Assembly (NCBI GenBank): GCA_045589295.1
Contig: JAZNOU010000002.1
Coordinates: 64,001-128,000 of the forward strand
Reading direction: 5' to 3'
DNA from: Clostridia bacterium
GTDB taxonomy: Bacteria; Bacillota; Clostridia; RGIG6154
Length of the DNA stretch: 64,000 nucleotides
This document shows, one piece after another, positions 24,551 to 41,171 of this stretch. Made by a program: the position numbers and the translations under genes. The notes beneath the pieces were generated by a model. That model searched no databases. It had not been told where the DNA came from and saw only the letters and a list, made by a program, of their open reading frames with translations. Numbering within the stretch: position 1 is the stretch's first letter; every line of letters starts with the position of its first letter.

Positions 24551-24988
24551 ATGAGCACATTAAAAGAAAGAGCTTCATACCTTGCAGGATTGGCTGAAGG
24601 AATGGAATTGGAAGCATCAAAAGAAAGCAAGCTTATTTTAAAGCTTTTGGAAGTTGTTGACGAAATGGCTGAGAGAATTGACGATTTGGAAGCATACGTT
24701 GAAGAACTCGATGCTAAAGTTGATGAAATTGATCACGATCTCGGCGATTTGGAAGAAGAATATTATGAAGATTGCGACTGTGATTGCGATGATGACGATT
24801 GTGATTGCTGTGATTGTGATTGCGACGATGACGATGTTTATGAATTTGAATGTGATAAATGCGGCGAAACAATTTTCGTTGACGGAAGCCTTTTAGATGA
24901 AGATGAAGAAATTCTTTGTCCAAACTGTGGTGAAGAAATTTCTCTTGAATTTGATGATTGCGACTGCGGTTGCTGCGATCACGAATAA
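24551..24988 (+). CDS. CD1247-like protein: N-terminal coiled coil, Cys/Asp-rich tract, zinc ribbon
   Basis: LKERASYLAGLAEG, CDKC...CPNC ribbon, DCDCDC repeats; typical efp neighbour in clostridia. Confidence 0.8.
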   Translation: MSTLKERASYLAGLAEGMELEASKESKLILKLLEVVDEMAERIDDLEAYVEELDAKVDEIDHDLGDLEEEYYEDCDCDCDDDDCDCCDCDCDDDDVYEFECDKCGETIFVDGSLLDEDEEILCPNCGEEISLEFDDCDCGCCDHE

Positions 24989-24998
24989 TAATTAAGTT

Positions 24999-25032
24999 AA
25001 AAAAGCACGTGCATATTTGCACGTGCTTTTTT
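24999..25032 (+). terminator. intrinsic terminator
   Basis: AAAAAAGCACGTGCA-TATT-TGCACGTGCTTTTTT. Confidence 0.9.
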
Positions 25033-25103
25033 GTATTATTTGGAAAAGCTTACAAATTTTTCTTTATTTTTCTTTGTTTTGTTGACTTTTTTTGGTTTTG
25101 CTA

Positions 25104-25132
25104 TTGACTTTGGTTGTAAAGTGGTGTAAAAT
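25104..25132 (+). promoter_or_regulatory. sigmaA promoter P1 of the BMC locus
   Basis: TTGACT-17 nt-TAAAAT. Confidence 0.7.
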
Positions 25133-25161
25133 ATAGTTGTATTATTATCGAGGTATTATAT

Positions 25162-25899
25162 ATGAAACTGATTGCAAGTGATTTAGACGGAACTCTTTTG
25201 TTAAAAGGAGAGAAAAAACTAAATAGCAGAGTTTTAAAGTCTTTGACAGCGCTTAAATCTTCCGAGATTGATTTTTCAGTTGCGTCAGGCAGAACATATG
25301 GCGAACTTATAAGAATTTTTGACGGTTTTTTAAGAGATACATATTTTATTTCATTTGACGGAGCACTAGTGGTTAAAAACGGGGAAAATCTGTATGGCAG
25401 TCCTTTTTCAAAGGAGGATTTAAAGCTTATAAATAAGTTTGATGAGTTTGTTTTGCATGGCAAATTTATGACTTATGTGAAATCTCGTTATCCTTATTTT
25501 ATAAGAAAGATAAAAAAACAATACAATGGGCACGTGGTGCAAATTTCTGATGTATCCGAAATAAAGGATTGTACTTTTAAGTTGGTTTTGTATAAAAATT
25601 TCAGAACGCTGGAAAAACTTCCGTTTGATATGGTGTATAAGGACAATACCTTGTGTGAGTTTGTAAAGCAGGGGACAAACAAAGGAGTTGCTCTTAAAAA
25701 TATTTTAAGCGAACTTAAAATACAACCCGAAGATTGTGCTGTGTTCGGCGACAGTGAAAATGATAAAGAGTTTTTAAAAGTTTCACAAAACAGCTTTGCA
25801 GTTAAAAACTCAAAACACGAGATAAGAAAGATTTGCAAATTCTATACTGATGATATTTCATCGACAATTGATATGTTAGTTAAGGAGGCAACAAAATGA
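25162..25899 (+). CDS. Cof-like HAD IIB phosphatase
   Basis: ASDLDGTLL, ASGR, NKG, FGDSEND; stop overlaps the GRE start (ATGA). Confidence 0.88.
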   Translation: MKLIASDLDGTLLLKGEKKLNSRVLKSLTALKSSEIDFSVASGRTYGELIRIFDGFLRDTYFISFDGALVVKNGENLYGSPFSKEDLKLINKFDEFVLHGKFMTYVKSRYPYFIRKIKKQYNGHVVQISDVSEIKDCTFKLVLYKNFRTLEKLPFDMVYKDNTLCEFVKQGTNKGVALKNILSELKIQPEDCAVFGDSENDKEFLKVSQNSFAVKNSKHEIRKICKFYTDDISSTIDMLVKEATK

Positions 25900-28427
25900 A
25901 AAAATTTGATTTTGACGGCATTTTAAAAAGTCCTAGAATTGACCGTTTGATTGATAATTTGTTTGTGAAAATGCCGGAAATTGAAGCAGAACGTGCGGTG
26001 CTTCTTACCGAGTCCTATAAGCAGACTGAAGGAGAACCAATTATTTTAAGACGTGCAAAAGCATTTAAAAATATCTGCGAAAAGCTTCCGCTTACAATTC
26101 GTGATGAAGAACTTATCGTAGGTGCTGCAACAAAAGTTGCACGTGGTTGTCAGGTGTTTCCTGAGTATTCTTTTGAATGGCTTGAAGAGGAGTTTGATAC
26201 AGTAGAAACAAGATCTGCAGACCCTTTCCACATTTCTGAAGAAACAAAAGCAACTTTAAAAGAAGTGTATAAGTACTGGAGAGGAAAAACCACCAGCGAT
26301 CTTGCTACTTCATATATGTCGTCTGCGGCATTAAAGGCAATTGAGCACAATATCTTTACACCCGGGAATTATTTTTACAATGGTGTAGGTCACGTTACAG
26401 TTGATTATAAGAAAGTTCTTGAAGTAGGTTACAAGGGCATTATGGCAGAGGCTAAAAAGGCTTTGGCAGAATGTGATGTTGCGCAGTCTGATTATGCATC
26501 AAGAAGTGCATTTTTAGAAGCAGTAATTATAAGCTGCGAGGCAGCAATTACCTTTGCAAAAAGATATTCAGAATATGCTTATCAGCTTGCACAGAATACC
26601 GCAGATGCTACAAGAAAACAGGAACTTTTAATAATTTCAGAAAACTGCGCAAATGTTCCTGAAAATGGTGCAAAATCATTCTATGAGGCTTGTCAGTCAT
26701 TCTGGTTTGTTCAGCTTCTTATTCAGACAGAATCAAGCGGGCACTCAATTTCACCTGGTCGTTTTGACCAGTATATGTATCCTTATTATAAAAAGGATAT
26801 TGATGCAGGCAAAATCACAAAGGAGTTTGCTCAAGAGCTTATTGATTGTGTTTGGGTTAAACTCAACGACTTCACAAAGGTAAGAGATAAAGCATCGGCA
26901 GAAGGTTTTGCAGGCTACAGTTTGTTTCAGAACCTGATTGCAGGCGGTCAGACTCCTGACGGAAGAGATGCCACAAACGACCTTTCATTCATGACAATTG
27001 AAGCAACTATGCATGTGCTTTTGCCACAGCCGTCGTTCTCTGTAAGGGTATGGAACGGAACTCCGCATGAATTTATGATTAAAGCGGGTGAACTTACAAG
27101 AACAGGTGTTGGTCTTCCTGCTTATTATAACGACGAAGTTATTATTCCTGCTTTAGTAAACCGCGGTCTTACTTTAGAAGATGCAAGAAACTACAACATC
27201 ATCGGTTGTGTTGAGCCTCAGTGTCCTGGCAAGACAGATGGATGGCATGATGCAGCGTTTTTTAATATGTGTAGAATTGTAGAGCTTGTTTTCTCAAACG
27301 GTGTTGATGAAGGTGAGAAAATAAGCGTTGACACAGGGAATGTTGAAGACTTTAAAACATTTGAAGAATTTTTTGATGCTTACAAAGCTCATATGAATTA
27401 TATGATAAAGCTTATGGTTAACGCAGACAATGCTATTGATATGGCACATATGAACCGTTGTCCGTTGCCATTCCAGTCATGTATGGTGGCTGACTGTATC
27501 GGCAGAGGCAAATCAATGCAGGAAGGTGGCGCGATTTACAACTTTACAGGTCCGCAAGGATTTGGTATTGCTAATATGGCAGATGCTCTTTATGCAATTA
27601 AAAAGCTTGTATTTGATGAAAAGAAAATTACTTTGGCTGAATTTAAAGAGGCTTTAAAAGATAACTACGGAAGAAGCACAGACGAAAAGCAGGCTATGAG
27701 CATTACAACTGAAATTGTGAGACAGATTGTATCTGCAGGTCAGACAGTTTCTGAAGAAAAAATTGCTGAAATTTACAAAATGGTTGCCGCAAGTGGTGGC
27801 GTAAGCGAAGAGAAAAAAGCAAAATATGATAAGCTTCTTGAGATGATTGATGCACTTCCTAAGTTTGGTAATGACAACAGTGAAGTAGATGCTTTAGCGA
27901 GAGAAGTTGCTTATACATATACAAAGCCATTGGAACAGTATAAAAATCCAAGAGGCGGAAGCTATCAGGCGGGATTATATCCTGTGTCTGCTAACGTTCC
28001 GCTTGGCGCACAGACAGGGGCAACTCCTGACGGAAGGTTTGCTTGTACCCCTGTGGCAGATGGTGTATCGCCTTGTGCAGGCAGGGATGTCAACGGACCT
28101 ACTGCGGCTGCAAACTCTGTTTCAAAGCTTGACCACTTTATTGCATCAAACGGAACGTTATTTAATATGAAGTTCCATCCGTCAGCTTTAAAAGGAAGAG
28201 CGGGTCTTGAGAGCTTTGTTTCGCTTATCAGAGCCTACTTTGACCAGAAAGGCAGTCACATGCAGTTTAACGTTGTAAGCCGTGAAACACTTCGCGATGC
28301 ACAGAAGAATCCTGAAAAGTATAAGAGCTTGGTTGTTCGTGTTGCGGGATATTCTGCACTGTTTACAACACTTTCAAAATCACTTCAGGATGATATTATT
28401 AACAGAACTGAACAAGGTGGATTTTAA
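25896..28427 (+). CDS. glycyl radical enzyme, probable B12-independent 1,2-propanediol dehydratase
   Basis: Gly loop RVAGYS, Cys loop GCVEP, dehydratase-type GVGH, SSGHSIS, GWHD, SLFQN and YPVSAN; BMC context. Confidence 0.88.
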   Translation: MKKFDFDGILKSPRIDRLIDNLFVKMPEIEAERAVLLTESYKQTEGEPIILRRAKAFKNICEKLPLTIRDEELIVGAATKVARGCQVFPEYSFEWLEEEFDTVETRSADPFHISEETKATLKEVYKYWRGKTTSDLATSYMSSAALKAIEHNIFTPGNYFYNGVGHVTVDYKKVLEVGYKGIMAEAKKALAECDVAQSDYASRSAFLEAVIISCEAAITFAKRYSEYAYQLAQNTADATRKQELLIISENCANVPENGAKSFYEACQSFWFVQLLIQTESSGHSISPGRFDQYMYPYYKKDIDAGKITKEFAQELIDCVWVKLNDFTKVRDKASAEGFAGYSLFQNLIAGGQTPDGRDATNDLSFMTIEATMHVLLPQPSFSVRVWNGTPHEFMIKAGELTRTGVGLPAYYNDEVIIPALVNRGLTLEDARNYNIIGCVEPQCPGKTDGWHDAAFFNMCRIVELVFSNGVDEGEKISVDTGNVEDFKTFEEFFDAYKAHMNYMIKLMVNADNAIDMAHMNRCPLPFQSCMVADCIGRGKSMQEGGAIYNFTGPQGFGIANMADALYAIKKLVFDEKKITLAEFKEALKDNYGRSTDEKQAMSITTEIVRQIVSAGQTVSEEKIAEIYKMVAASGGVSEEKKAKYDKLLEMIDALPKFGNDNSEVDALAREVAYTYTKPLEQYKNPRGGSYQAGLYPVSANVPLGAQTGATPDGRFACTPVADGVSPCAGRDVNGPTAAANSVSKLDHFIASNGTLFNMKFHPSALKGRAGLESFVSLIRAYFDQKGSHMQFNVVSRETLRDAQKNPEKYKSLVVRVAGYSALFTTLSKSLQDDIINRTEQGGF

Positions 28428-29218
28428 TGGATAAGGATTTTTACAATGTAAAAGGGCGAATTTTTGACATTCAGAAATTTTCGGTTCATGATGGTCCTGG
28501 TATAAGAAGCATTGTGTTTTTAAAAGGCTGTGCGCTAAGGTGCAAATGGTGTTGCAATCCTGAGTCTCAAAGTTATGACATACAGCAGATGAATATGGAT
28601 GGTAAAATTAAAACCGTGGGACGTGATGTTACTGTAGCAGAAGTAATGGATGAAGTGCTAAAAGACTTCCCTTATTTCAGACGTTCGGGTGGAGGAATAA
28701 CTCTTTCTGGCGGCGAGTGTTTGCTTCAACCTGACTTTTCGGTGGCTCTTCTAAAGGCAGCAAAGTACAACGGAATTTCTACAGCTATTGAGTCTACTGG
28801 GTTTGCTAAATATGAGGTTATTGAAAAATTGCTTCCTTATTTAGATGTTTATTTGATGGATATAAAACATATGAACAGTGAAAAACACAGGCTTTTTACA
28901 AGTCAACCAAATGAACGGATTTTGGAAAATGCGGTGAAAATAGCACAGAATGCAAAAAAACTTATAATAAGAGTTCCGGTTATTCCGACGTTTAATGATA
29001 CCGTTGAAGAAATAACTGATATTGCAAGATTTGCAAAAAGTCTTAAAAATGTTGATGAAATTCATCTTCTTCCTTACCATAGATATGGAACAGACAAGTA
29101 CAAGTGGCTTGGAAGAAAGTATGAACTTGAAAACATCACTTCGCCGACCGATGAAAAAATGCAGGAGCTTTTAAGAGCAGCAGAAGCTGTAGGGTTAAAT
29201 GCTCAGATAGGAGGGTAA
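28427..29218 (+). CDS. glycyl-radical activating enzyme (radical SAM, short form without ferredoxin insert)
   Basis: HDGPGIR, CALRCKWCCNPE, GGITLSGGE, DIKH, LLPYH. Confidence 0.95.
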   Translation: MDKDFYNVKGRIFDIQKFSVHDGPGIRSIVFLKGCALRCKWCCNPESQSYDIQQMNMDGKIKTVGRDVTVAEVMDEVLKDFPYFRRSGGGITLSGGECLLQPDFSVALLKAAKYNGISTAIESTGFAKYEVIEKLLPYLDVYLMDIKHMNSEKHRLFTSQPNERILENAVKIAQNAKKLIIRVPVIPTFNDTVEEITDIARFAKSLKNVDEIHLLPYHRYGTDKYKWLGRKYELENITSPTDEKMQELLRAAEAVGLNAQIGG

Positions 29219-29219
29219 T

Positions 29220-29588
29220 ATGCAGGATATTTCAATGCAGGATAAAATGAGAATAGTGCAAGAGCTTGTTCCGGGTAAGCAGATTACTCTTGCACATATT
29301 ATTGCAAATCCGGATCAGGTTTTGTATAAAAAATTAGGACTTGACCCTCAGGTTGAGTATTCAAAATCGGCAATTGGAATTATTACACTTTCGCCAAGTG
29401 AAACTGCAATTATAGCAGGTGATATTGCGATAAAGGCGTCAGGAGCAGAGCTTGGATTTGTTGACCGCTTCAGCGGAACACTTATCACAACAGGAACTGT
29501 ATCTGAGGTAGAGGCTTCGATGAACGCAATTTGTGATTATTGCAAAAACAAGCTTGGTTTTACAATTTGTGAAATAACAAAGACCTGA
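29220..29588 (+). CDS. pduU: permuted BMC shell hexamer, PduU/EutS type
   Basis: RIVQELVPGKQITLAHIIANP, PSETAIIAGD, GFVDRFSG, ICEITKT. Confidence 0.9.
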   Translation: MQDISMQDKMRIVQELVPGKQITLAHIIANPDQVLYKKLGLDPQVEYSKSAIGIITLSPSETAIIAGDIAIKASGAELGFVDRFSGTLITTGTVSEVEASMNAICDYCKNKLGFTICEITKT

Positions 29589-29607
29589 TTTTCTGGAGGG
29601 GTTTTAC

Positions 29608-30033
29608 ATTAAAAGAATAATTTTTATGGGCAGAACCGGCAGCGGAAAAACATCAATTACGCAGGCGCTTAAAAAACAGCCTGTAAAGTATAAAAAGACT
29701 CAGTACATAAATTATTATGAAGCAATTATTGATACTCCGGGTGAATATGCCGAAAATGCTCACTTAGGAAGGGCACTTGCTCTTTATTCTTATGAGGCAG
29801 ATGTTGTTGGACTTTTGCTTTCTGCAACAGAAGAATATTCGCTTTTCCCGCCAAACATTACTTGCCTTGTAAATCGAGAGGTTGTAGGAATTGTGACAAA
29901 AATTGATAAACAAAATGCAAATCCTGACAGGGCAAAAAAATGGCTTGAGCTTACAGGATGCAAAAAAATATTTTTTGTAAGTTCAAAAACTGGTGAGGGA
30001 ATAGAAGAATTGACTAATTATTTGTCAAAATGA
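29608..30033 (+). CDS. pduV: PduV/EutP small GTPase, probable ATT start
   Basis: (I/M)KRIIFMGRTGSGKT, YKKTQ, IDTPGEY, TKID, VSS; SD GGAGGG at 29595-29600, 7 nt before ATT. Confidence 0.88.
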   Translation: MKRIIFMGRTGSGKTSITQALKKQPVKYKKTQYINYYEAIIDTPGEYAENAHLGRALALYSYEADVVGLLLSATEEYSLFPPNITCLVNREVVGIVTKIDKQNANPDRAKKWLELTGCKKIFFVSSKTGEGIEELTNYLSK

Positions 30034-30084
30034 AAATAAAACCACAAAAAACCACAAAAAAATTAAAAAAACAACATATTTTTG

Positions 30085-30113
30085 TTGACAAAACAAAGAA
30101 AAAGTGGTACTAT
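30085..30113 (+). promoter_or_regulatory. sigmaA promoter P2 of the BMC locus
   Basis: TTGACA-17 nt-TACTAT with extended TG; preceded by AAACCACAAA direct repeats. Confidence 0.75.
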
Positions 30114-30175
30114 TATATTGTAAACAAATATATTCAAACATAATATACAATTTCAAGAGAAAAGGAGAATAGATT

Positions 30176-30988
30176 ATGACTTCAGAATTTGAAATCAAAA
30201 AACAAATTTGTGACATCGGTAAGAGAATTTACAACAGAGGCATGGTTGCTGCAAATGACGGTAACATTTCTGTTAAGCTTTCCGACAATGAATTTTTGTG
30301 CACACCTACAGGTGTAAGTAAGGGCTTTATGACACCCGAGTACATCTGTAAAGTTGACAGAGACGGTAATGTTATCCAGGCAAATGGTAACTTTAAGCCT
30401 TCTTCTGAAATCAAAATGCACATGAGAGTTTATCAGCAGAGACCTGATGTAAAAAGTGTTGTTCACGCACATCCTATTTACGCAACAAGTTTTGCTATTG
30501 CAGGCATTCCGCTTACACAGCCTATTATGCCTGAAGCAGTTATTGCACTTGGTTGCGTTCCGATTGCTGAGTACGGCACACCTTCTACAATGGAAATTCC
30601 TGATGCTGTAGAAAAATACTTGCAGTATTATGATGCAGTGCTCTTGGCTAACCATGGTGCACTTGCATATTCTGATAGCTTACTTGCAGCATATCACAAG
30701 ATGGAATCTTTGGAATTTTATGCAGAGCTTCTCTTTAAAGCAAAACAGCTTGGTGGCCCAAAAGAATTGTCAGAAGAACAGGTTCAGAGACTTTACGAAA
30801 TCAGAAGACAGTTCGGTATGACAGGTAAACATCCTGCAGACCTCTGCCCAAATGCTAAAGACGGAAAAACAAGCTGCCATTCATGCGGCGGACACTGCGG
30901 CGGACACAAAGCTGCTACAATAAGCGGGGCAGATGCTGATTTGGTTGCATCAATTACAAAAAGAGTAATGGAACAGCTTGGCAAATAA
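30176..30988 (+). CDS. class II aldolase (fuculose/rhamnulose-1-phosphate aldolase-like) with C-terminal encapsulation peptide
   Basis: DGNIS, TPTG.SK, PSSE..MH, HAHP, LANHG; tail DADLVASITKRVMEQLGK. Confidence 0.9.
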   Translation: MTSEFEIKKQICDIGKRIYNRGMVAANDGNISVKLSDNEFLCTPTGVSKGFMTPEYICKVDRDGNVIQANGNFKPSSEIKMHMRVYQQRPDVKSVVHAHPIYATSFAIAGIPLTQPIMPEAVIALGCVPIAEYGTPSTMEIPDAVEKYLQYYDAVLLANHGALAYSDSLLAAYHKMESLEFYAELLFKAKQLGGPKELSEEQVQRLYEIRRQFGMTGKHPADLCPNAKDGKTSCHSCGGHCGGHKAATISGADADLVASITKRVMEQLGK

Positions 30989-31012
30989 TTGCACTTTGAA
31001 AGGAGCAGTTAT

Positions 31013-31486
31013 ATGAATGAGCAAAATATTTCTTCTTTGGTAGCTGCTGCAATTAAAGACGTGATTTTAAACTCTTCTTCCGAAATGAATCTCGACAAGG
31101 CTAAGAAGCTTGCTTTAATTGTTGAAAACGAAGCAAAAAGGATTGGGGTTAAGGCAGTGGTTGCAATTTCCAATTCGGGAGCAAGACCTGTTTTGGTTGA
31201 GTGTATGGATGATTCTTATATAGCAAGTTATGATGTTGCTTTTAACAAAGCCTACACTGTAGTTGCACTCAAAATGCCAACTTCAAAGCTTAAAACTTTG
31301 AGCCAGCCCAACCAACCACTTTACGGTATACAATTTACTAATCAAGGACAGATTGTTATTTTCGGCGGTGGTGAGCCACTTTATAAAGATGGTAAGATAG
31401 TTGGAGGCCTTGGGGTAAGCGGCGGAACCGAAGAACAAGATACCTACCTTGCTGAGTTTGGTGCTAAAGCATGGGAGGAACTTTAA
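31013..31486 (+). CDS. heme-binding GlcG/HbpS (PduO C-terminal-like) protein with N-terminal encapsulation-like peptide
   Basis: MDDSYIASYDVAFNKAYT, FGGGEPL, GGLGVSGGTEEQD; N-terminus MNEQNISSLVAAAIKDVI. Confidence 0.88.
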   Translation: MNEQNISSLVAAAIKDVILNSSSEMNLDKAKKLALIVENEAKRIGVKAVVAISNSGARPVLVECMDDSYIASYDVAFNKAYTVVALKMPTSKLKTLSQPNQPLYGIQFTNQGQIVIFGGGEPLYKDGKIVGGLGVSGGTEEQDTYLAEFGAKAWEEL

Positions 31487-31487
31487 A

Positions 31488-33017
31488 ATGACCGAACTAA
31501 AGAAAAAAGCTCTTGAAATTGCAAAGAGCAAATCCAGTACGGTTGTTGAAGTTTTTAGAGAAGAAAAACAAGAGTTTATTTATTATCTTATTGAAAACGG
31601 CGGATATTTCGCAAATGATAATGAGATAAAAAGGCTTGAAACACATGCAGTTACAAAAGCTGACAATTTAAATGCTGTGTTGTTTAAAATGAAAGCAATT
31701 ACAGCATACGACCACAAGTTTATAATTTATGATGCCGACAAGGCATATTTAGACGGGTTTAATGTTCCAATGGTTGGAATTAAAACCTTAAAAAAAGAAA
31801 AAAGGAGCGCTGAAATGGATATTAATCAGGATAAAATTCAGGCAATAGTTCAGCAGGTTCTGTCCGAAATGGGAGGAAATGCAAAGCCGGCTCCAAAGGC
31901 AACAGGTGGCGCAATCCCCAAAACAAGCAGGGCGGCAATGCTCACAAAGCTTGAAAATTACGAAATAAAAGAGTTCCCTATTCCTGAGCTTGGCGACGAT
32001 GACATTTTAGTTAAAGTTGAAGGTTGCGGCGTTTGCGGAACCGATGCACACGAATTCAAACGTGATCCCTTTGGTCTTATCCCACTTGTTCTCGGTCACG
32101 AGGGCACGGGCGAAATTGTAAAGATGGGTAAAAACGTTAAAAAGGACAGTGCAGGAAAGCCACTTAACGTTGGCGATAAAGTTGTTACCTGTATGATCTT
32201 TAAAGACAATCCGGATATCACAATGTTTGATTTAAACAAACAAAATGTCGGCGGTGCAGATGTCTACGGACTTCTCCCTGATGATGACATTCACTTAAAT
32301 GGTTGGTTTGCAGACTACATAGTAGTAAGAGGCGGTTCTACAGTATTTAATGTTAGCGACTTAGACCTCGATTCAAGAATTTTAATTGAACCTTGTGCAG
32401 TTTTAATTCACGCAGTAGAACGTGCTAAAACAACAGGAATTTTAAAATTCAATTCAAGAGTTGTTGTTCAGGGTTGTGGACCTATCGGTCTTATCTGTAT
32501 CGCGATTCTTCGTACAATGGGTATTGAAAATATCGTTGCAGTAGATGGCGAACAAAAAAGACTTGATTTTGCAAGAGAAATGGGCGCGACAGGTACAGTT
32601 AACTTCAAAGACCACAAGGGTATTGAAGCACTTACCGGTGCAGTAGAAAACGAATTTGGCGGATACTTAGCTGACTTTGCATTCCAGTGCACTGGCTCAC
32701 CAATTGCTCACGCTAACATTTACAAGTTTATAAGAAACGGTGGCGGTCTTTGCGAACTCGGTTTCTTTATAAACGGCGGCGACGCTACAATCAATCCACA
32801 CTTTGACATTTGTTCAAAGGAAATCACAACAGTAGGTTCTTGGGTTTACACTTTAAGAGATTATGCTACAACATTTGATTTCTTAAAGAGAGCAAAAGGT
32901 ATCGGACTTCCGATGGAAAAGCTCATCACTCACAAGTTCCCACTTGACCAAATCAATGAGGCTCACATCACAAACCTTAAGATGGAAGGCCTTAAAATAG
33001 CAATAGTAAATGATTAA
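31488..33017 (+). CDS. zinc-dependent (MDR) alcohol dehydrogenase; second in-frame start at 31815 begins with an encapsulation peptide
   Basis: CGVCGTD, GHEGTG, IEPCA, GCGPIG; MDINQDKIQAIVQQVLSEM at 31815; SDs before both 31488 and 31815. Confidence 0.9.
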   Translation: MTELKKKALEIAKSKSSTVVEVFREEKQEFIYYLIENGGYFANDNEIKRLETHAVTKADNLNAVLFKMKAITAYDHKFIIYDADKAYLDGFNVPMVGIKTLKKEKRSAEMDINQDKIQAIVQQVLSEMGGNAKPAPKATGGAIPKTSRAAMLTKLENYEIKEFPIPELGDDDILVKVEGCGVCGTDAHEFKRDPFGLIPLVLGHEGTGEIVKMGKNVKKDSAGKPLNVGDKVVTCMIFKDNPDITMFDLNKQNVGGADVYGLLPDDDIHLNGWFADYIVVRGGSTVFNVSDLDLDSRILIEPCAVLIHAVERAKTTGILKFNSRVVVQGCGPIGLICIAILRTMGIENIVAVDGEQKRLDFAREMGATGTVNFKDHKGIEALTGAVENEFGGYLADFAFQCTGSPIAHANIYKFIRNGGGLCELGFFINGGDATINPHFDICSKEITTVGSWVYTLRDYATTFDFLKRAKGIGLPMEKLITHKFPLDQINEAHITNLKMEGLKIAIVND

Positions 33018-33036
33018 TTTTAGGAGGGTATAAATC

Positions 33037-33312
33037 ATGGCATTAGAAGCATTAGGTATGATTGAAACAAGAGGTCTTACTGCAGCAATTGAAGCGGCAG
33101 ACGCAATGGTTAAAGCTGCAGAAGTAACACTTATCGGAACTGAAAAAATCGGTTCAGGATTAGTAAGTGTTATGGTTCGTGGTGATGTAGGAGCAGTTAA
33201 AGCTGCTACAGAAGCAGGTTCTGCTTGCGCATCTCGCCTTGGCGAATTGGTTGCAGTTCACGTAATCCCAAGACCACACGCTGATGTTGAAAAAATTCTC
33301 CCCAAATTCTAA
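33037..33312 (+). CDS. BMC shell hexamer (PduA/J-like)
   Basis: [39 protein letters not shown]. Confidence 0.97.
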
Positions 33313-33328
33313 TTAAGAGGTGAGATAA

Positions 33329-33706
33329 ATGGCAACAGCTAAAAAGACAACTAAGGCGGCTGCTCCAAAAGCAGAGCCTAAAAAAGAAGTAAATATCAAG
33401 GTTGAATCTATTAAGGAGGAAAAGAAAATGGCATTAGAAGCATTAGGTATGGTAGAAACAAGAGGTTTGGTAGCTGCAATTGAAGCTGCCGATGCAATGC
33501 TCAAAGCTGCAAACGTACAGCTTTTAGGAACTGAAAGAATCGGTTCTGGTTTGGTAAGCGTTATGGTTCGCGGTGATGTAGGCGCTGTTAAAGCTGCTGT
33601 AGAAGCTGGTCAGGCAAGTGCTCAGAGACTCGGCGAAATCATTGCTACACACGTAATTCCAAGACCTCATGGTGATGTTGAAAAAATTCTTCCGTCACTC
33701 AAATAA
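33329..33706 (+). CDS. BMC shell hexamer (PduA/J-like) with Lys/Ala-rich N-terminal extension; internal start at 33428
   Basis: Core from 33428 is nearly identical to the preceding hexamer; SDs before both ATGs. Confidence 0.95.
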
Positions 33707-33725
33707 TTTAACTGTCAAATATAAG

Positions 33726-33753
33726 GGTTGCCGTGCTTAAATGCACGGCGACC
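33726..33753 (+). other. intra-operon stem-loop without U-tract
   Basis: GGTTGCCGTGC-TTAAAT-GCACGGCGACC (11 bp, one G-U), followed by TGATGAT. Confidence 0.7.
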
Positions 33754-33782
33754 TGATGATAGTATTACGGGAGGGTACTTAA

Positions 33783-34043
33783 ATGATTATCGGTAAGGTA
33801 ATAGGAAGCATTGTTTCCACAAGAAAAAACGAAAATTTAGTTGGCAATAAATTTATGATTGTTGAACCTGCTCAAAAAACTGGAAATGGCAACATCGTTG
33901 CAGTTGATAATATCGGTGCAGGTATCGGAGAGTATGTTTTAGTTGCAACAGGCAGTGCGGCAAGAATTGGCTGCAATATGGAATCAAGTCCTGTTGATGC
34001 TGCAATTGTCGGAATAATTGATGATGCAAGCGAATTAAAATAA
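33783..34043 (+). CDS. BMC vertex pentamer (EutN/PduN/CcmL)
   Basis: GKVIGSIVSTRK, VAVDNIGAGIGEYVL..GSAAR, VDAAIVGIID. Confidence 0.96.
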   Translation: MIIGKVIGSIVSTRKNENLVGNKFMIVEPAQKTGNGNIVAVDNIGAGIGEYVLVATGSAARIGCNMESSPVDAAIVGIIDDASELK

Positions 34044-34064
34044 AACTATTATGAAAGGTAACAA

Positions 34065-35402
34065 ATGGCTATGACACTTGAAAAATTGCAACAGCTTATG
34101 AAGGACAATGGTATAGTCGGTGCCGGTGGTGCTGGATTTCCTTCATACGCAAAGTTGGATAAAAGAGCAGATACGATTATATTAAACTGTGCAGAGTGTG
34201 AGCCTCTTTTAAAGCTTCACAGACAGCTTTTGGCAGAGTATGCGTATGAAATTATGAGCACTCTTGACTTAATTGCTGATTTAGTTGATGCAAAAAGTGT
34301 TATTATTGCTGTAAAACATGCCTATACTGAGGCTGTTAATGCGGTAAAAGCCAATCTTGATTCTTTTAAAAGAATAAGCATTGGATATTTACCTGAAATT
34401 TATCCGGCAGGCGATGAGGTTGTTACAATTTATGAAACAACCAAGAGAGTCGTTGCACCGGGTAAGCTCCCCATTACGGTGGGAGTAACGGTGTTTAATG
34501 TTGAAACTATTTATAATGTGTACAGAGCGATAAATGAAAATGAGCCTGTTACATATAAATACATAACTGTTGCAGGCGAGGTTAAAAAACCTGTGACAGT
34601 AAAAGTTCCTCTTGGAACATCAATTAAAGAAGTCATCAAAATGGCAGGTGGCGCAACCGTTGAGGATTATAAGTTAATCAACGGCGGACCTATGACAGGT
34701 GGCTTGATTGAAGAATTTCAGACAGTAACAAAGACAACAAATGGTATTTTGGTTATGCCTAAAGACCATTATATTATAAATAAAAGATTGGCAAGCATCA
34801 AGACCGATATGAAACGTGCTATGAGTGCTTGTTGCCAGTGTAAAATGTGCACAGATATGTGTTCAAGAAATCTTTTGGGACACCCTATAAAACCTCATGA
34901 ATTTATGAGAGTGGCAACATCGGGAGTTACAAGAGATATTGAACCATTTATTAATACAATGTTTTGTTCTGCGTGCGGACTTTGCGAGATGTATGCCTGC
35001 AATCAGGGGCTTTCACCAAGAGCTTTGATTTTAGCTTACAAGAACGGACTAAGACAAAACGGAATAAAAATCCCAGATGATATTTCATTTAAAGAAGTAT
35101 CAAAGCAGAGGGAATTCAGAAAAGTTCCCATGCATCGTCTTGTTGCAAGACTTGGACTTACACCATATGACAAACCTGCACCACTTGATAATGAACTCAA
35201 AAGTGTAAAAACTGTGAAAATTGCATTAGCACAACATATTGGTGCACCTTGCAATGCAGTTGTTAAAAAAGGTGACAAGGTTAAAAGTGGACAGATAATT
35301 GGAGAATCGTCGGTTGACAAGTTGGGTGTGAACATTCACGCATCGATATCTGGTGTTGTACTTGATGTCAACGACAGATTTGTTACTATAAAAGGAGAGT
35401 AA
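34065..35402 (+). CDS. pduS: PduS/RnfC-like flavo-iron-sulfur oxidoreductase
   Basis: GIVGAGGAGFP, NCAECEP, YPAGDE, GGPMTG, CCQCKMCTDMC, CSACGLCEMYAC, QHIGAP...HASISG. Confidence 0.9.
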   Translation: MAMTLEKLQQLMKDNGIVGAGGAGFPSYAKLDKRADTIILNCAECEPLLKLHRQLLAEYAYEIMSTLDLIADLVDAKSVIIAVKHAYTEAVNAVKANLDSFKRISIGYLPEIYPAGDEVVTIYETTKRVVAPGKLPITVGVTVFNVETIYNVYRAINENEPVTYKYITVAGEVKKPVTVKVPLGTSIKEVIKMAGGATVEDYKLINGGPMTGGLIEEFQTVTKTTNGILVMPKDHYIINKRLASIKTDMKRAMSACCQCKMCTDMCSRNLLGHPIKPHEFMRVATSGVTRDIEPFINTMFCSACGLCEMYACNQGLSPRALILAYKNGLRQNGIKIPDDISFKEVSKQREFRKVPMHRLVARLGLTPYDKPAPLDNELKSVKTVKIALAQHIGAPCNAVVKKGDKVKSGQIIGESSVDKLGVNIHASISGVVLDVNDRFVTIKGE

Positions 35403-35405
35403 GGT

Positions 35406-35954
35406 ATGGGAAAAGCAATTGGTATGGCTGAATTTCAGAATGTGTCATCAGGTGTTCAAGCTGCTGATATTATCATTAAAACAGCCGATGTAGATGTAAT
35501 TGAGGCACAGGTTGTGTGCCCTGGTAAATACATAATAATCATTACAGGACAGCTGAGTGCTGTAAGAGCTTCCATTGATGCAGCAAAAGTTAAGTTTGCA
35601 CAGACAATGGTAGACAGTTTTGTACTTGGAAATCCCGATGAATCAATTTTCCCTGCAATTTACGGCTCAAATCCTGTTGAAAACCCAAACGCTTTAGGTG
35701 TTTTGGAAACATACTCTGCAGCTTCAATTATTGTTGCTGCTGACCTTGCAGCAAAAACTGCAGATGTTAATTTGATTGAACTCAGAATTGCGAGAGGTAT
35801 GTGCGGTAAGTCTTATATGTATATTACAGGCGAGGTTGCTGCAGTAACCGCTTCAATAGAAAATGCAAAAGCTAAAATTGGTGATAACGGAATGTTGCTT
35901 GATGCATCGGTTATTCCAAATCCTGATAAAAAACTTTGGGACACAATTTTATAA
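35406..35954 (+). CDS. pduT: BMC tandem-domain trimer, PduT type
   Basis: VCPGKY (Fe-S Cys loop), two BMC domains, next to pduS. Confidence 0.9.
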   Translation: MGKAIGMAEFQNVSSGVQAADIIIKTADVDVIEAQVVCPGKYIIIITGQLSAVRASIDAAKVKFAQTMVDSFVLGNPDESIFPAIYGSNPVENPNALGVLETYSAASIIVAADLAAKTADVNLIELRIARGMCGKSYMYITGEVAAVTASIENAKAKIGDNGMLLDASVIPNPDKKLWDTIL

Positions 35955-36026
35955 GCTGGAGCATAGAAGAAATAAAGCTTATAATGAAACGGCAGTATGG
36001 TAATTTATAATAGAGGGTGAGAACTT

Positions 36027-37418
36027 ATGAATATTAGTGAAAGCTACATTAAACAAATTGTAGAACAGGTAATAAACGGAACACAGACCGTGGCTGGCAA
36101 CAAAACACTTAAAGGTGTATTCCCCACAATGGGCGAGGCGCTTGTTGCAGTTGAAAAAGCTTATAAAGAATTTAAATCATACAGCGTAGCACAGCGTGAG
36201 AAAATGATTTCTAAAATCAGAGAATACACATTGGCAGAAGCTGAAAATATGGCGGTGCTTGGTGTAAAAGAAACCAAAATGGGAAGGGTTTCTGATAAAA
36301 TTATCAAGCATCAGTTGGTTGCAAACAAAACTCCGGGTACTGAAGATTTACAGCCATCAGTTATGACAGGTGATGATGGTATGACATTGGTTGAAATGGC
36401 ACCTTACGGTGTAATTGGTAGTATCACACCTTCAACAAATCCATCAGAAACTGTTATTTGCAACTCAATGGGTATGATTGCAGGCGGAAATGCGGTTGTA
36501 TTTAATCCGCATCCTAACGCGTGTGATACAGCAAATTATGCAGTTGACCTTGTTAACAGAGCAGTTTTAGAGGCGGGAGGCCCAGAAAACTTAGTAGTTT
36601 CTGTTGCAAAACCTACGAGAGAGTCTTCAAATGAAATGATGGCTTCTCCTGTAGTTAAAATGCTTGTTGCAACAGGCGGACCTGGTGTTGTTAAAGCACT
36701 CTTGTCTTCTGGTAAAAAGGCAATTGGTGCAGGGGCAGGAAATCCTCCTGTTATTGTTGACGATACTGCAGATATTGAAAAAGCGGGCGCAGATATTGTT
36801 AAAGGTGCAAGCTTTGACAATAACTTGCCATGTATTGCAGAAAAAGAATGTTTTGTATTTAACAACGTGGCAGACAGACTTATTGCTTCAATGCTTGAAA
36901 ATGGTGCGTACCTTGTTAAAGGAGCAGACATTGATAAGCTTGTTAAAGTCGCACTTGTTGAAAAAGACGGAAAATATTCAATCAATAAAGATTTTGTAGG
37001 CAGAGATGCTTCTAAGTTCTTAAAAGAAATTGGAATTGATGCAGATCCAAGACTTATAATCTGTGAAACGGATTTTAACCATCCGTTTGTTCAGGAAGAA
37101 CTTATGATGCCAATTTTGCCGATTGTAAGAGTTAACAATATTGACGAAGCTATTGAACTTGCTGTTAAGGCAGAACACGGCAACCGTCACACAGCACATA
37201 TTCATTCAAAGAATATCGACCACCTTACAAGATTTGCAAGAGCGGTTGAAACAACAATTTTTGTTAAAAATGCTCCTTCTTATGCAGGTATCGGTGCAGG
37301 CGGAGAAGGTTATACAACATTTACTATAGCAGGTCCTACAGGTGAAGGTTTAACAGCTGCTCATTCATTCACCAGAAGCAGAAGATGCGTTATGGTAGAC
37401 GGACTTCATATTGTTTAA
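36027..37418 (+). CDS. pduP: CoA-acylating (propion)aldehyde dehydrogenase, PduP/EutE family, with N-terminal encapsulation peptide
   Basis: ITPSTNP, TGGPGVV, GAGNPP, SFDNNLPCIAEKE, ELMMP, EHGNRHTA, TGEG; N-terminus SESYIKQIVEQVI. Confidence 0.93.
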   Translation: MNISESYIKQIVEQVINGTQTVAGNKTLKGVFPTMGEALVAVEKAYKEFKSYSVAQREKMISKIREYTLAEAENMAVLGVKETKMGRVSDKIIKHQLVANKTPGTEDLQPSVMTGDDGMTLVEMAPYGVIGSITPSTNPSETVICNSMGMIAGGNAVVFNPHPNACDTANYAVDLVNRAVLEAGGPENLVVSVAKPTRESSNEMMASPVVKMLVATGGPGVVKALLSSGKKAIGAGAGNPPVIVDDTADIEKAGADIVKGASFDNNLPCIAEKECFVFNNVADRLIASMLENGAYLVKGADIDKLVKVALVEKDGKYSINKDFVGRDASKFLKEIGIDADPRLIICETDFNHPFVQEELMMPILPIVRVNNIDEAIELAVKAEHGNRHTAHIHSKNIDHLTRFARAVETTIFVKNAPSYAGIGAGGEGYTTFTIAGPTGEGLTAAHSFTRSRRCVMVDGLHIV

Positions 37419-37447
37419 TTTTACTTATTGACGAAAGGAAAGCGAAA

Positions 37448-38089
37448 ATGAAAGCTTTGGGAATGATAGAAGTTTATAGCTTTACAACTGCTGTATGTGT
37501 TGCCGACGTTGCAGCAAAGGCAGCAGATGTTAAGGTTATTGCTTTTGATAGAAACAGACCTATATCCCCTGATGTTCCAGCTCCGGTTGTAATGATTGTT
37601 AAAATTGAGGGTGAGGTTGCTGCAGTCAGAGCTGCAGTTGAAGCAGGTGTGAATTATTCAAAGGAAAAGGGTAAGTACATTGTATCTCATATAATTGCAC
37701 GTCCTGATGAAGACACAGAAAATATGGCTTATCTTATAGATATAAACAAAGATAAGTACAACAAAAAATTCCCCAAGAACTTTAAGGGCGTACAAACTTC
37801 AGAGCCTGAAACAAAAGGTGCTATTGGACTTTTGGAGGTAGAGGGTTTGGTTGCTTCAATTGAAGGATTGGATACAATGCTTAAAGCTGCTGAAGTTAAG
37901 CTGGTACATACAGAAAAAAGACTTGGAGGTAGACTTGTAACTTACATTATAACAGGTAATGTATCCTCAGTTAAAGCGGCTGTGGAAGCAGGTTATAGTG
38001 GTGCAAAAGTTTTAGGAAGAGTTTTTGGTAATGAGATAATTGCAAATCCTCATAATGAAGTACTTAAATTTTTTGATATGGAAGTTTAA
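37448..38089 (+). CDS. tandem two-domain BMC shell protein
   Basis: ALGMIEV...GEVAAVRAAVEAG...HIIARP, linker, AIGLLEV...EKRLGGRLV...IIANPH; ATG 37448 after GAAAGGA. Confidence 0.88.
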   Translation: MKALGMIEVYSFTTAVCVADVAAKAADVKVIAFDRNRPISPDVPAPVVMIVKIEGEVAAVRAAVEAGVNYSKEKGKYIVSHIIARPDEDTENMAYLIDINKDKYNKKFPKNFKGVQTSEPETKGAIGLLEVEGLVASIEGLDTMLKAAEVKLVHTEKRLGGRLVTYIITGNVSSVKAAVEAGYSGAKVLGRVFGNEIIANPHNEVLKFFDMEV

Positions 38090-38112
38090 TGTTGCATAAA
38101 GGAAGAGTTTTT

Positions 38113-38769
38113 ATGGATACAAAAATCATTGAAGATGCAGTTTTAAAGGCTATAAATGAATATAATATGGACGTAAGCGGCGAAATCAAAGTGGGTGTGT
38201 CACAAAGACATATTCATCTATCCCGTGAAGACCTTGACATTTTGTTTGGAAAAGGATATGAACTTACAAAAAAGAAAACTTTGATGGGAAGAGAGTATGC
38301 CTCGGAAGAAACAGTAACCTTAGTTGGACCATCACTAAAATCCATTGAAAAGGTGAGAGTTTTAGGTCCTGTGAGAAAAGACACACAGGTTGAAATTTCA
38401 AGAACGGATACTTTTATTTTAAAGGTTAGTCCGCCTGTTCGTCCGTCAGGTAAAATTGAAGGTTCTGAAAAAGTTGTTGTTGTAGGACCTAAAGGCAGTG
38501 TGTATTTAAGGCAGGGTGTTATTATTGCTAATCGTCACATTCATCTTACACCTGCTTACGCTGAGCGCCACGACATTAAAGACGGCGACTATGTTGATGT
38601 TATGGTTGAAGGCATTAAGCCAACCAAGTTTTTTGATGTTCAGGTGCGCGTGAGAGATGATTTTAATGTTGAAATGCATATTGATACTGATGATGCAAAC
38701 TCAGCAGGAATCAAAAACGGCAGTATTGTTAAAATTGTAAGAAAATGCGAAGATTGCAATTGTCGTTAA
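38113..38769 (+). CDS. pduL: phosphate propanoyltransferase PduL
   Basis: VGVSQRHIHLS, VRVLGP.R..TQVEIS.TD, NRHIH, MHIDTDDAN; N-terminal encapsulation-like helix (alternative ATG at 38089). Confidence 0.94.
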   Translation: MDTKIIEDAVLKAINEYNMDVSGEIKVGVSQRHIHLSREDLDILFGKGYELTKKKTLMGREYASEETVTLVGPSLKSIEKVRVLGPVRKDTQVEISRTDTFILKVSPPVRPSGKIEGSEKVVVVGPKGSVYLRQGVIIANRHIHLTPAYAERHDIKDGDYVDVMVEGIKPTKFFDVQVRVRDDFNVEMHIDTDDANSAGIKNGSIVKIVRKCEDCNCR

Positions 38770-38784
38770 GATAGTAGGGGTGAT

Positions 38785-39549
38785 ATGATGTTTGCTCTGG
38801 AACGCCAGAAAAAGATTTTAGAGCTTTTAGAACAAGATGGTGCGGTGTTTGTTACAAAATTAAGCACAGAACTTGGTGTTACAGAAGAAACCGTTCGCCG
38901 AGATCTTGAGAAGCTTGAAAAACAAGAGGCTTTAGTCAGAACTCACGGAGGCGCAATGCCGATTGTTGAATCTAACAGAGAGCTTTCTTTAGAAAAAAGA
39001 AAAAATATAAATGTTGATGCCAAAATTCGCTTAGCAAAAGAAGCGGTTAATCATATTGTGTCGGGTGATACAGTGTTTTTAGATGCATCGACTACAACGT
39101 TTTACATTGCCAGAGAACTTAAAAACTTTAAGAATGTTACTATTGTAACAAATTCGCTAAGAGTTATAACCGAGCTTGCAGGTCAGCCAAATTTAAATGT
39201 TATTGCAATCGGGGGGTACGCTTCTGATAATCAGTCACTTGTAGGGAGTATTGCTCAAAGAGATATTGCGAATAATTATTTTGCAAATAAGATGTTCTTC
39301 TCAAGCCGAGGCATGACAGAAAGTGTAGGTATTTTAGAAAGTAACGAGCAAGAGTGTGGTATAAAGCAGGCAATGATGAAAAATGCTGAGAAAAAATACT
39401 ACGTTTGCGATCACTCCAAAATTGGAAGGGTTGGATTTGCAAAGCTAGCACAATTTACCGATGTTGACTATGTAATTACTGAGGGACCTTTAGGAGAGTC
39501 GTTTAAAAAAATATTCGAAGATATTGACACGAAATTAGTTGAGATATAA
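38785..39549 (+). CDS. DeoR/GlpR family transcriptional regulator
   Basis: ERQKKIL, VTEETVRRDL..LE, RTHGGA, FLDASTT, VTNS, DHSK. Confidence 0.95.
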   Translation: MMFALERQKKILELLEQDGAVFVTKLSTELGVTEETVRRDLEKLEKQEALVRTHGGAMPIVESNRELSLEKRKNINVDAKIRLAKEAVNHIVSGDTVFLDASTTTFYIARELKNFKNVTIVTNSLRVITELAGQPNLNVIAIGGYASDNQSLVGSIAQRDIANNYFANKMFFSSRGMTESVGILESNEQECGIKQAMMKNAEKKYYVCDHSKIGRVGFAKLAQFTDVDYVITEGPLGESFKKIFEDIDTKLVEI

Positions 39550-39551
39550 TA

Positions 39552-39578
39552 AAAACAGGTGCACAACGCACCTGTTTT
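39552..39578 (+). terminator. intrinsic terminator ending the BMC operon
   Basis: AAAACAGGTGC-ACAAC-GCACCTGTTTT. Confidence 0.85.
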
Positions 39579-39755
39579 ATTATTTGAATAATTTTAGCAA
39601 AAGTAGTTGAATTTTAACTTATTATATTATATACTATTTGTAAGGTTGATACAATGCTCAAATCAAGAATATGTGCTTATAAGCAAAGCTTGGTGTAATG
39701 GGCGTTATTGAGATTGTAACACTAATTGTAAATGCATAAAAGAGGAATGATTACG

Positions 39756-41171
39756 TTGAGAAAAACAAAAATTATATGTACACTAGGACCATCTACTGAT
39801 AATCCCGAAATCATTGAAAAAATGGTTAAAGCAGGCATGAATGTTGCAAGACTTAATTTTTCACACGGGACTCACGAAGAACAGCTTAAAAGAATAAATA
39901 TGGTAAAAGAAGTAAGACAAAGGCTTAATTGCCCATTGGCGATTTTGCTTGATACCAAGGGACCTGAAATAAGAATAGGCATGTTTAAAGATGGGTTTGC
40001 AATGCTCAATGCAGGTCAGAAATTTACACTTGTGTGCGACGAGATACAAGGTGATAATCAAAGGGTTTCTGTATCACATAAAAAAATCTCCTCAATTTTA
40101 AAGAGCGGAGATACCATTCTGATAGATGATGGTTTAATAGAACTTAATGTTGAAGAATTTGACGGTAAAGATGTAGTTTGCCGGGTTATAAACGGGGGGA
40201 AGATTTCAAACAAAAAAAGTATAAATCTCCCAGGTGTTAAATTGGATATGCCTTATATGACCGAGCGTGACAGAGAAGATCTTTTGTTCGGAATTAAGGC
40301 AGATGTTGATTATGTTGCGGCTTCGTTTATCAGAAATGCCGATGATGTAAAATGTGTCAGAAACTTGCTTGATGAAAACGGCGGTAAAGATATTAAGTTG
40401 ATTTCAAAAATAGAAAATAACGAGGGTGTAGAAAATATTGACGAGATTTTAGCAGAGTCTAACGGTATTATGATTGCCAGAGGGGATATGGGTGTTGAAA
40501 TTTCGTTTGAAAGACTTCCTGCAATTCAAAAATCACTTATCAAAAAGTGCTATGAGGCTGGTAAGCCTGTAATTACCGCAACACAGATGCTTGAATCTAT
40601 GGTGCATAGCCCAAGACCTACAAGGGCAGAGGTTTCGGACGTGGCAAATGCTATTTATGACGGAACAAGCGCCATTATGCTTTCGGGTGAAACCGCTGCA
40701 GGTATGTATCCGATAGAAAGTGTTGAAACAATGTCAAAAATTGCCGAAATGACTGAGAAAAATATTCATTATAAGAAAAGATTTCTGGCTCAGCAAAAAA
40801 TAAAAAATACGTCTATTACTGACGCGGTAAGTCATGCTGCGTGCACAATGGCGATTGACTTGGGAGCGGCTGCTATTGTTGCAGTTACCACCAGCGGACA
40901 TACAGCGAGAATGCTTTCAAAATTCAGACCATCATGTCCGATAATTGCCGTTATAGTTGATGAAAAGGCATACCATCAGACTTCTATGACATGGGGAGTA
41001 GTTCCGGTAAAAAATGATATGCAGGAAACAATGGACGATATGTTTGAATCAGGAATGAGAAAGGCGATTACAACAAGAATTTTAAAAAAAGACGATATGA
41101 TAGTTTTAACAGGAGGATTACCTGTTGGAATTGCAGGAACAACAAATGTTGTAAAGGTGCAGATTTTATAA
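39756..41171 (+). CDS. pyk: pyruvate kinase
   Basis: RKTKIICTLGP, ARLNFSHG, DTKGPEIR, ARGDMGVE, TATQMLESM, PTRAE.SDVANA, MLSGETA; TTG start after AGAGGA. Confidence 0.97.
   Translation: MRKTKIICTLGPSTDNPEIIEKMVKAGMNVARLNFSHGTHEEQLKRINMVKEVRQRLNCPLAILLDTKGPEIRIGMFKDGFAMLNAGQKFTLVCDEIQGDNQRVSVSHKKISSILKSGDTILIDDGLIELNVEEFDGKDVVCRVINGGKISNKKSINLPGVKLDMPYMTERDREDLLFGIKADVDYVAASFIRNADDVKCVRNLLDENGGKDIKLISKIENNEGVENIDEILAESNGIMIARGDMGVEISFERLPAIQKSLIKKCYEAGKPVITATQMLESMVHSPRPTRAEVSDVANAIYDGTSAIMLSGETAAGMYPIESVETMSKIAEMTEKNIHYKKRFLAQQKIKNTSITDAVSHAACTMAIDLGAAAIVAVTTSGHTARMLSKFRPSCPIIAVIVDEKAYHQTSMTWGVVPVKNDMQETMDDMFESGMRKAITTRILKKDDMIVLTGGLPVGIAGTTNVVKVQIL

Follow-up and report, generated by a model that had tools for sequence, protein, structure and literature searches.

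Are the parts list and the subunit ratios of a bacterial microcompartment (BMC) set by one post-transcriptional programme or by expression devices that arose separately? The question is raised by positions 29,608–33,753 of a 64,000-nucleotide stretch of the Clostridia bacterium contig JAZNOU010000002.1 (hereafter, the window), which lies in a glycyl-radical microcompartment operon of the fucose/rhamnose type (GRM5) on the scale of ~18 genes. A first-pass annotation, made from the sequence alone, had singled out four elements here and joined them in a single system: an AUU start of pduV, nested pairs of starts with Shine-Dalgarno (SD) sequences in the genes for an alcohol dehydrogenase (ADH) and a shell hexamer, and a stem-loop without terminator features past the hexamer genes. 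All four are present at the positions given in Table 1, each above chance. From their conservation, we put at about 0.7 the probability that two proteins come from each of the nested genes and that a step in mRNA level between the hexamers and the downstream pentamer is due to the hairpin. The operon appears to carry several separately evolved expression devices and not one system.

From 577 ADH matches in genome contigs, the 80 best were combined with 20 loci of relatives, the window's own included, to give a comparison set of 93 loci after removal of 7 duplicates. A hexamer was regarded as tailed if at least 20 open codons preceded its PduA-like gene, and complete hexamer clusters were available for 75 loci. 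A tailed hexamer with an internal SD sequence and start was found in 70 of the 75. Among 79 tailed hexamer genes, 78 have an upstream ATG, which is accompanied by an SD sequence in 73; at the internal start, 78 of the genes use ATG and one uses GTG. The tails (n = 73) are 23–102 aa long and consist mainly of Lys (24.5%), Ala (15.8%), Thr (14.2%), and Glu (13.7%), with a median net charge of +4 and Ala at position 2 in 63/73. Across the tail, the other two frames are open in just 6/73 and 3/73 genes, and the dN/dS ratio is 0.13–0.67 in 10 of 11 pairs (one saturated), values that are noisy for such short sequences.

In the window, the internal SD sequence AAGGAGG (33413–33419) is encoded by the last tail codons (KEEKK). 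The junction codons read AAG-GAG-G in 67/73 genes, whereas AAG accounts for 162/547 Lys codons and GAG for 50/288 Glu codons in the tail body, and AAG-GAG spells 18/720 K-E-G pairs genome-wide. AAGGAGG precedes three of the genome's 8693 internal ATGs, and AGGAG precedes 28. Codon bias thus keeps the internal SD, and the tail is under purifying selection. The internal SD is stronger than the upstream one in all 73 genes (median −11.2 vs −7.1). It is likely that the hexamer gene gives two proteins, one long and one short; the stronger internal SD would give the plain hexamer as the main product, and the weaker upstream SD would give a minority of tailed subunits that co-assemble into mixed hexamers. 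Since the termini of BMC-H proteins face the cytosol, the tails would lie on the outward-facing side, and the tailed subunits may cover the shell with a flexible brush that is sparse and mildly basic. The AlphaFold model of the long hexamer is of low confidence throughout (mean pLDDT 53), and the disorder proposed for the tail therefore rests on composition and indels. BMC-H extensions have been described as mostly C-terminal (PMC8217296).

An outside sample of 60 regions, chosen from the top BMC matches listed for the 104 positive genomes among 401, contained 102 hexamers, two of which carried the two-start flag: one stands beside a GRM5-like ADH, and the other has a weak TTG start and no low-complexity tail. 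The tailed hexamer looks GRM5-specific in this sample of formally untyped outside regions. The group of 116 other hexamers with 0–19 open codons shares the cut-off definition and was not used as a control. A GRM5-like ADH (57%) and a GTG-start tailed hexamer occur together in a distant locus (L122:9029–9746), with no match to a glycyl-radical enzyme (GRE) or aldolase in the 19 kb examined. The number of plain PduA-like genes reaches four in L064 and three in L065.

The long and short starts of the ADH gene lie within a single open frame. The extension is fused in frame in 25/90 loci (92–147 aa), forms a separate gene in 1/90, and is absent from 64/90, where 17 loci with a full aldehyde dehydrogenase (AldDH) gene directly upstream, leaving no room for an extension, were scored as extension-less by rule. 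At the internal start, 24 of the 25 fused genes use ATG and one uses GTG; AGGAG lies upstream in 24. The junction codons are AGG-AGN in 23/25, and AGG makes up 13/313 Arg codons in the ADH cores. For the extension, dN/dS is 0.10–0.50 in 9 of 12 pairs, with three saturated; for the core, it is 0–0.08. Heuristic picks of the long start in 26 loci gave ATG (11), GTG (11), ATA (3), and TTG (1), all at most 21 nt from the hbpS stop. Like the hexamer gene, the ADH gene likely makes long and short proteins. By the same heuristic, the long ADH in L010, L021, and L089 apparently starts at an ATA that overlaps the hbpS stop, 7 nt past AGGAGG.

The ADH extension is predicted to fold confidently (pLDDT 86.9) and is homologous to the catalytic domain of acylating AldDH. 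Comparison with PduP gave an hhalign probability of 96.5 (E 8.8e-10), comparison with 4C3S gave a Foldseek E of 6e-4 and a TM of 0.74, and structural alignment to an acylating AldDH gave a VIA Z of 9.3 (rmsd 3.0, 105 aligned, residues 247–372), the next unrelated chain having a Z of 4.9. A HAD-like domain was ruled out (hhalign probability 0.06). The Pfam search of the extension returned nothing consistent and the Atlas search no usable match; a search of representative sequences gave four matches. Both Cys and an NAD-binding domain are missing from the 109-aa extension of the window, which rules out AldDH activity; it also lacks the NNLPC motif that is invariant in alignment A2. Because it occupies the slot held by a full AldDH in other loci, we infer that it is a relic AldDH piece kept under selection. 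AldDH is encoded downstream in all 16 extension-bearing loci where it is visible. In the scheme that we propose, the AldDH gene moved downstream, and its old copy may have been reduced to a domain that folds but is catalytically dead and that remained in fusion with ADH and in coupling with hbpS. ADH would have retained a start of its own, which would still allow a form whose N-terminal encapsulation peptide is free. The order of these events is not claimed, the ADH tree being quick and poorly resolved; on it, the extension needs six changes, and one origin is possible. Our best guess at its function is a docking module; complex prediction of the extension with AldDH gave no interpretable result (score 0.00). 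In L043 (9663–9998), the AldDH-derived domain has a gene to itself, and in protein P0003 (108 aa) it ends in a helix that by eye resembles an encapsulation peptide.

The hairpin past the last hexamer gene has a predicted energy of −23.8 kcal/mol (z −6.06), which none of 200 shuffles equalled, and is followed by TGATGATA, with no U run. It lacks the U-rich tract past the stem that marks a canonical intrinsic terminator and was not called in the terminator scan of the window. The best hairpin at this junction has a median of −23.5 across the loci, compared with −3.4 to −12.2 at other junctions. It is present in 54/75 loci, corresponding to 54/57 with a spacer of at least 50 nt. At least five T occur in the 8 nt past the stem for 3/54 of these hairpins vs 13/14 of those after deoR, and the genome baseline for strong U-poor hairpins is 11/252 co-directional junctions. 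The hairpin sequences are mostly unrelated between loci, and covariation is weak (2/22 pairs, four near relatives). The single copy in the genome rules out a REP-like repeat, and no Rfam match was found within 24900–39800.

An expression step at the corresponding position is seen in the published RNA-seq data for Clostridium phytofermentans (PMC4230839, Table S6). Petit et al. aligned only residues 73–161 of Cphy_1182, the BMC domain, to a homologue (PMC3557285), and the annotated Cphy_1182 is therefore the long form. This gene is the operon peak on homogalacturonan and xylan, and the drop after it is 2.4–25-fold across substrates, with read-through into the downstream genes. Reads per kilobase per million (RPKM) for Cphy1180–1184 on homogalacturonan are 41, 72, 224, 9.0, and 11; on xylan, Cphy1182 stands at 56.5 vs 18 upstream and is followed by 3.0; on arabinan, 63 is followed by 13, with Cphy1178 at 72. 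By analogy, this step fits a 3′ stabilizer of the type known from the selective processing and stabilization of RNA (SRPS). The hairpin could block 3′-to-5′ decay in this way and/or terminate transcription partly, and it likely holds the hexamer mRNA above that of the downstream pentamer and accessory genes.

Several observations weigh against two products from each gene and a hairpin-set step. The loci are related and were picked by ADH likeness, and their counts measure conservation, not independent events. The tail is absent from 5/75 complete loci (L048, L064, and L065 of one clade, L062, and L077), the hairpin is absent from 21/75, including all 18 with a spacer below 50 nt, and the upstream SD of the ADH gene is the stronger one in 21/25 loci. 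Expression was measured in a distant species, the hairpin and internal SD sequence of which were not read; there, the drop on stover, from 11.8 to 4.8 RPKM, is just 2.4-fold (PMC4230839, Table S6), and fold-induction on fucose microarrays declines mildly, from 73.7 to 49.4, 37.2, 31.7, and 25.6 (PMC3557285). In addition, Cphy_1182 has weak 5′ ends at −13 and +141 (36–41 reads, xylan only; PMC5171806), by which transcription could account for the short form as well as for the peak. Short forms and the step in mRNA level could then both be transcriptional, with the hairpin acting as a U-poor internal terminator and the short hexamer coming largely from internal or processed transcripts without the upstream start. 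Internal terminators of clostridia are poorer in U, and their GC-rich stems are longer (PMC9045158), a further weak Capp-Switch 5′ end lies 168 nt ahead of Cphy_1183, and the operon is already shaped by an internal promoter. However, termination alone would not lift the last hexamer 3–5-fold over its upstream neighbours on homogalacturonan and xylan, the 5′ ends are low in count and come from a single condition, and a strong promoter match precedes the best plain-hexamer match in 1/90 loci, the tailed gene's own upstream stretch being unscanned. We regard this explanation as unlikely, though with appreciable weight, and as partly compatible with the one we prefer.

It is improbable that the long forms alone matter and that the internal SD and Met merely reflect starts that were once separate, ribosome pausing, or the coding of KEE/RR. 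Such a view agrees with the gene callers, which hold the long forms, with the purifying selection on both extensions, and with the separate gene for the ADH extension in L043, which makes an ancestral origin of the internal ADH SD plausible; it does not account for SD sequences kept via rare synonymous codons (67/73 vs 18/720 and 23/25 vs 13/313) or for an internal codon that, amid variable residues, is without exception ATG or GTG and has the spacing of an initiation site.

The pduV start has a different history. The ATT codon is preceded by GGAGGGG, with an SD duplex of −9.8 kcal/mol vs −1.1 for the ATG at 29626, a start at which would lose the first six Pfam positions. The start codon is unchanged in the contigs of sequencing runs X1 and X2 that span the site; the X9 contig also covers it, its listed differences lying at other sites, and the X5 contig ends short of it. 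The sister genome G002 has ATA at this position behind an identical SD, and its codons 2–7 differ by three synonymous changes and no amino-acid change (gene-wide dN/dS 0.05). The run contigs, of which X1 may derive from the source sample, and the ATA of the sister genome rule out an assembly error. Given the strong SD, the unchanged contigs, and the ATA with synonymous-only changes, the non-canonical pduV start is likely genuine, as the first-pass annotation had proposed.

This start is not a family-wide trait, since pduV begins with ATG or GTG in 63/65 loci, and the two non-NTG cases are the two sister species, with AUU and AUA. Two other genomes of the same genus start pduV with ATG. By this distribution, the AUU/AUA start is a recent trait of two sister species only. 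In the related loci, the pduV start lies at most 4 nt from the pduU stop in 53/65 cases, and a weak SD was observed at 60/63 ATG/GTG starts, which suggests that coupled, low initiation is the norm for pduV. The two species would have exchanged coupled initiation for a strong SD with a weak codon, a combination that likely holds PduV low.

A conserved promoter, not noted in the first-pass annotation, separates pduV from the other elements. Matches scoring at least 11 were found ahead of the aldolase gene in 61/75 loci (shuffled fraction 0.000), compared with 0–2 loci for adh, hexA, eutN, pduS, and aldh and 10/32 for the GRE gene. The promoter claim rests on this conservation, because the scan of the single window was overall not above shuffles (46 vs 39 ± 6). 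In C. phytofermentans, a transcription start site is located 21 nt ahead of Cphy_1177, where the operon table opens a unit (PMC5171806), and RPKM on homogalacturonan climbs from 2.7 to 41.6 across the Cphy_1177 junction (PMC4230839, Table S6). Lying upstream of this promoter, pduV is off the main transcript that carries the other elements, and on these grounds its AUU start is outside any shared system. The GRE/activase/pduU/pduV block forms a separate unit, which is low in the C. phytofermentans RNA-seq data (~3 vs 42 RPKM, homogalacturonan).

One co-evolved post-transcriptional programme that includes the AUU start and sets the parts list and ratios, as the first-pass annotation had envisaged, is therefore very improbable. 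The four elements do lie inside 4.2 kb both here and in G002, and the tail and the hairpin are both common. Nevertheless, the AUU start and its AUA counterpart are confined to two species (2/65), the promoter stands between pduV and the rest in 61/75 loci, and the ADH fusion is independent of the hairpin (with it in 11 loci, without it in 10, of 73 scorable); all four elements coincide in G000 and G002 only. What survives of the proposal is its components. The nested dual-SD genes are present and conserved beyond chance (ADH 25/90, hexamer 70/75), a U-poor stem-loop stands after the hexamers in 54/75 loci, and the conservation makes long and short isoforms and a post-hexamer mRNA step likely; conservation across related loci, proposed as a check on the whole, is thus broad for hexamer and hairpin, narrow for ADH, and nearly nil for AUU. 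The expectation that gene callers miss the isoforms was half right: the short ADH and the first six pduV residues are missed, pduV being called from the downstream ATG and the exact short ADH of this genome being absent from databases, but the long ADH (509 aa) and the long hexamer (125 aa) are already annotated.

The closest known loci are the GRM5 loci of C. phytofermentans (Cphy_1174–1187) and Roseburia inulinivorans, which have in common with the window a propanediol-dehydratase GRE, its activase, a class II aldolase, and a Zn-ADH (PMC3557285, PMC6325248, PMC4207490), as well as AldDH, PduL, PduS, PduT, and DeoR. The window differs in its downstream AldDH, the dead AldDH fragment on ADH, pduV, and HAD. 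The consulted parts of these three descriptions do not mention internal starts, and a literature search that covered few subscription papers turned up no account of GRM loci with internal starts or with control by a stem-loop. Internal initiation itself is already established for PduB/PduB′ and CcmM58/CcmM35. Both genes studied here share two features with that class, namely, an in-frame internal SD and start that are under nucleotide-level selection and an upstream extension that has an SD and start of its own and is coding (open frame, dN/dS below 1). PduB/PduB′ is likewise a shell gene, the alternative translation starts of which yield a full-length product and one truncated at the N-terminus (PMC5109269); PduB, however, is a BMC-T trimer with both forms seen by proteomics, whereas the present gene encodes a PduA-like BMC-H with a low-complexity tail of 23–102 aa and two predicted forms. 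In CcmM, a cargo protein, internal initiation likewise parts a domain of enzyme origin at the N-terminus from the remainder (PMC13515050), but the scaffold roles of CcmM are proven, and the dispensable part here is an AldDH fragment on a Zn-ADH in 25/90 loci only. The SRPS stem-loops of Ruminiclostridium cellulolyticum are, like the present one, strong intergenic hairpins that end the gene for the most abundant subunit on its 3′ side and lack a U run (PMC4423207), as do 28/33 of the stem-loops in that paper; the operon of the window encodes a BMC, and its hairpin is a predicted one. The word 'microcompartment' was not found in the main SRPS papers listed.

We consider it possible, but quite tentative, that GRM5 organelles are built of mixed hexamers, in which a ribosome-set tailed minority spaces, positions, or tethers shells, and that in one lineage the long ADH serves as a CcmM-like scaffold. 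If so, a dead AldDH domain, at a ratio set by internal initiation, would link the NADH-consuming and NADH-producing core enzymes. The dead AldDH domain on ADH is probably a displaced gene retained in the form of a non-catalytic module. The uneven ratios of BMC parts and the role of hexamer extensions are open questions that the two-start PduA-type gene touches. Both become testable because the gene is conserved in almost every GRM5 locus of the set and, judging by its annotation, in the tractable C. phytofermentans. The annotated long open reading frame (ORF), cloned with a new ribosome-binding site, would still give a mixture.

Table 1. Coordinates of the features within the window.
Feature	Positions	Strand	Remarks
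pduV: SD 29595–29601, AUU start 29608	29595..30033	+	Upstream of internal promoter
Internal sigma-A-type promoter, TTGACA-17-extended −10 (TG-TACTAT)	30085..30113	+	Predicted to drive the aldolase-to-shell transcript
Class II aldolase (GRM5 signature)	30176..30988	+	PF00596
HbpS-like (DUF336-type) gene	31013..31486	+	PF03928; stop 1 nt ahead of long ADH start
Long ADH: SD 31473–31479, start ATG 31488	31473..31814	+	109-aa Cys-free acylating-AldDH catalytic-domain fragment
Short Zn-dependent ADH, 400 aa: internal SD 31802–31807, start ATG 31815	31802..33017	+	
Plain PduA-like hexamer	33037..33312	+	Single start; in-frame stop 2 codons upstream
Long hexamer: weak SD 33317–33323, start ATG 33329	33317..33427	+	33-aa Lys/Ala/Thr/Glu tail
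Short PduA-like hexamer, 92 aa: internal start ATG 33428	33428..33706	+	
12-bp GC-rich hairpin without U tract past last hexamer	33725..33754	+	Outer stem from 33711
EutN/CcmL pentamer	33783..34043	+	PF03319; first gene past hairpin

The gene order of the locus is HAD, glycyl-radical dehydratase, activase, pduU, pduV, aldolase, hbpS-like, and Zn-ADH, followed by the shell genes for two PduA-like hexamers and the pentamer and by pduS, pduT, AldDH, BMC-T, pduL, and deoR. It contains the components by which GRM5 is defined (PMC6325248, PMC4207490): a GRE and its activase (PF02901/PF01228 and PF04055), a class II aldolase with a PF00107/PF08240 dehydrogenase, homologues of PduS (34065–35402) and PduT (35406–35954), and a DeoR regulator (38785–39549). 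The best solved PDB match of the GRE is the diol dehydratase 5I2A (1285.7 bits, residues 3–841). The HAD hydrolase gene (25162–25899) forms the head of the operon, behind a promoter-like site at 25104–25132, and was found in 22 loci, many of them with the ADH fusion. The longest ORF of BMC-T (37385–38089) overlaps the end of aldh, and its likely start is the ATG at 37448, which has an SD sequence. The locus is bounded by a terminator-like hairpin ahead of HAD (24998–25033) and a bidirectional one past deoR (39552–39578).

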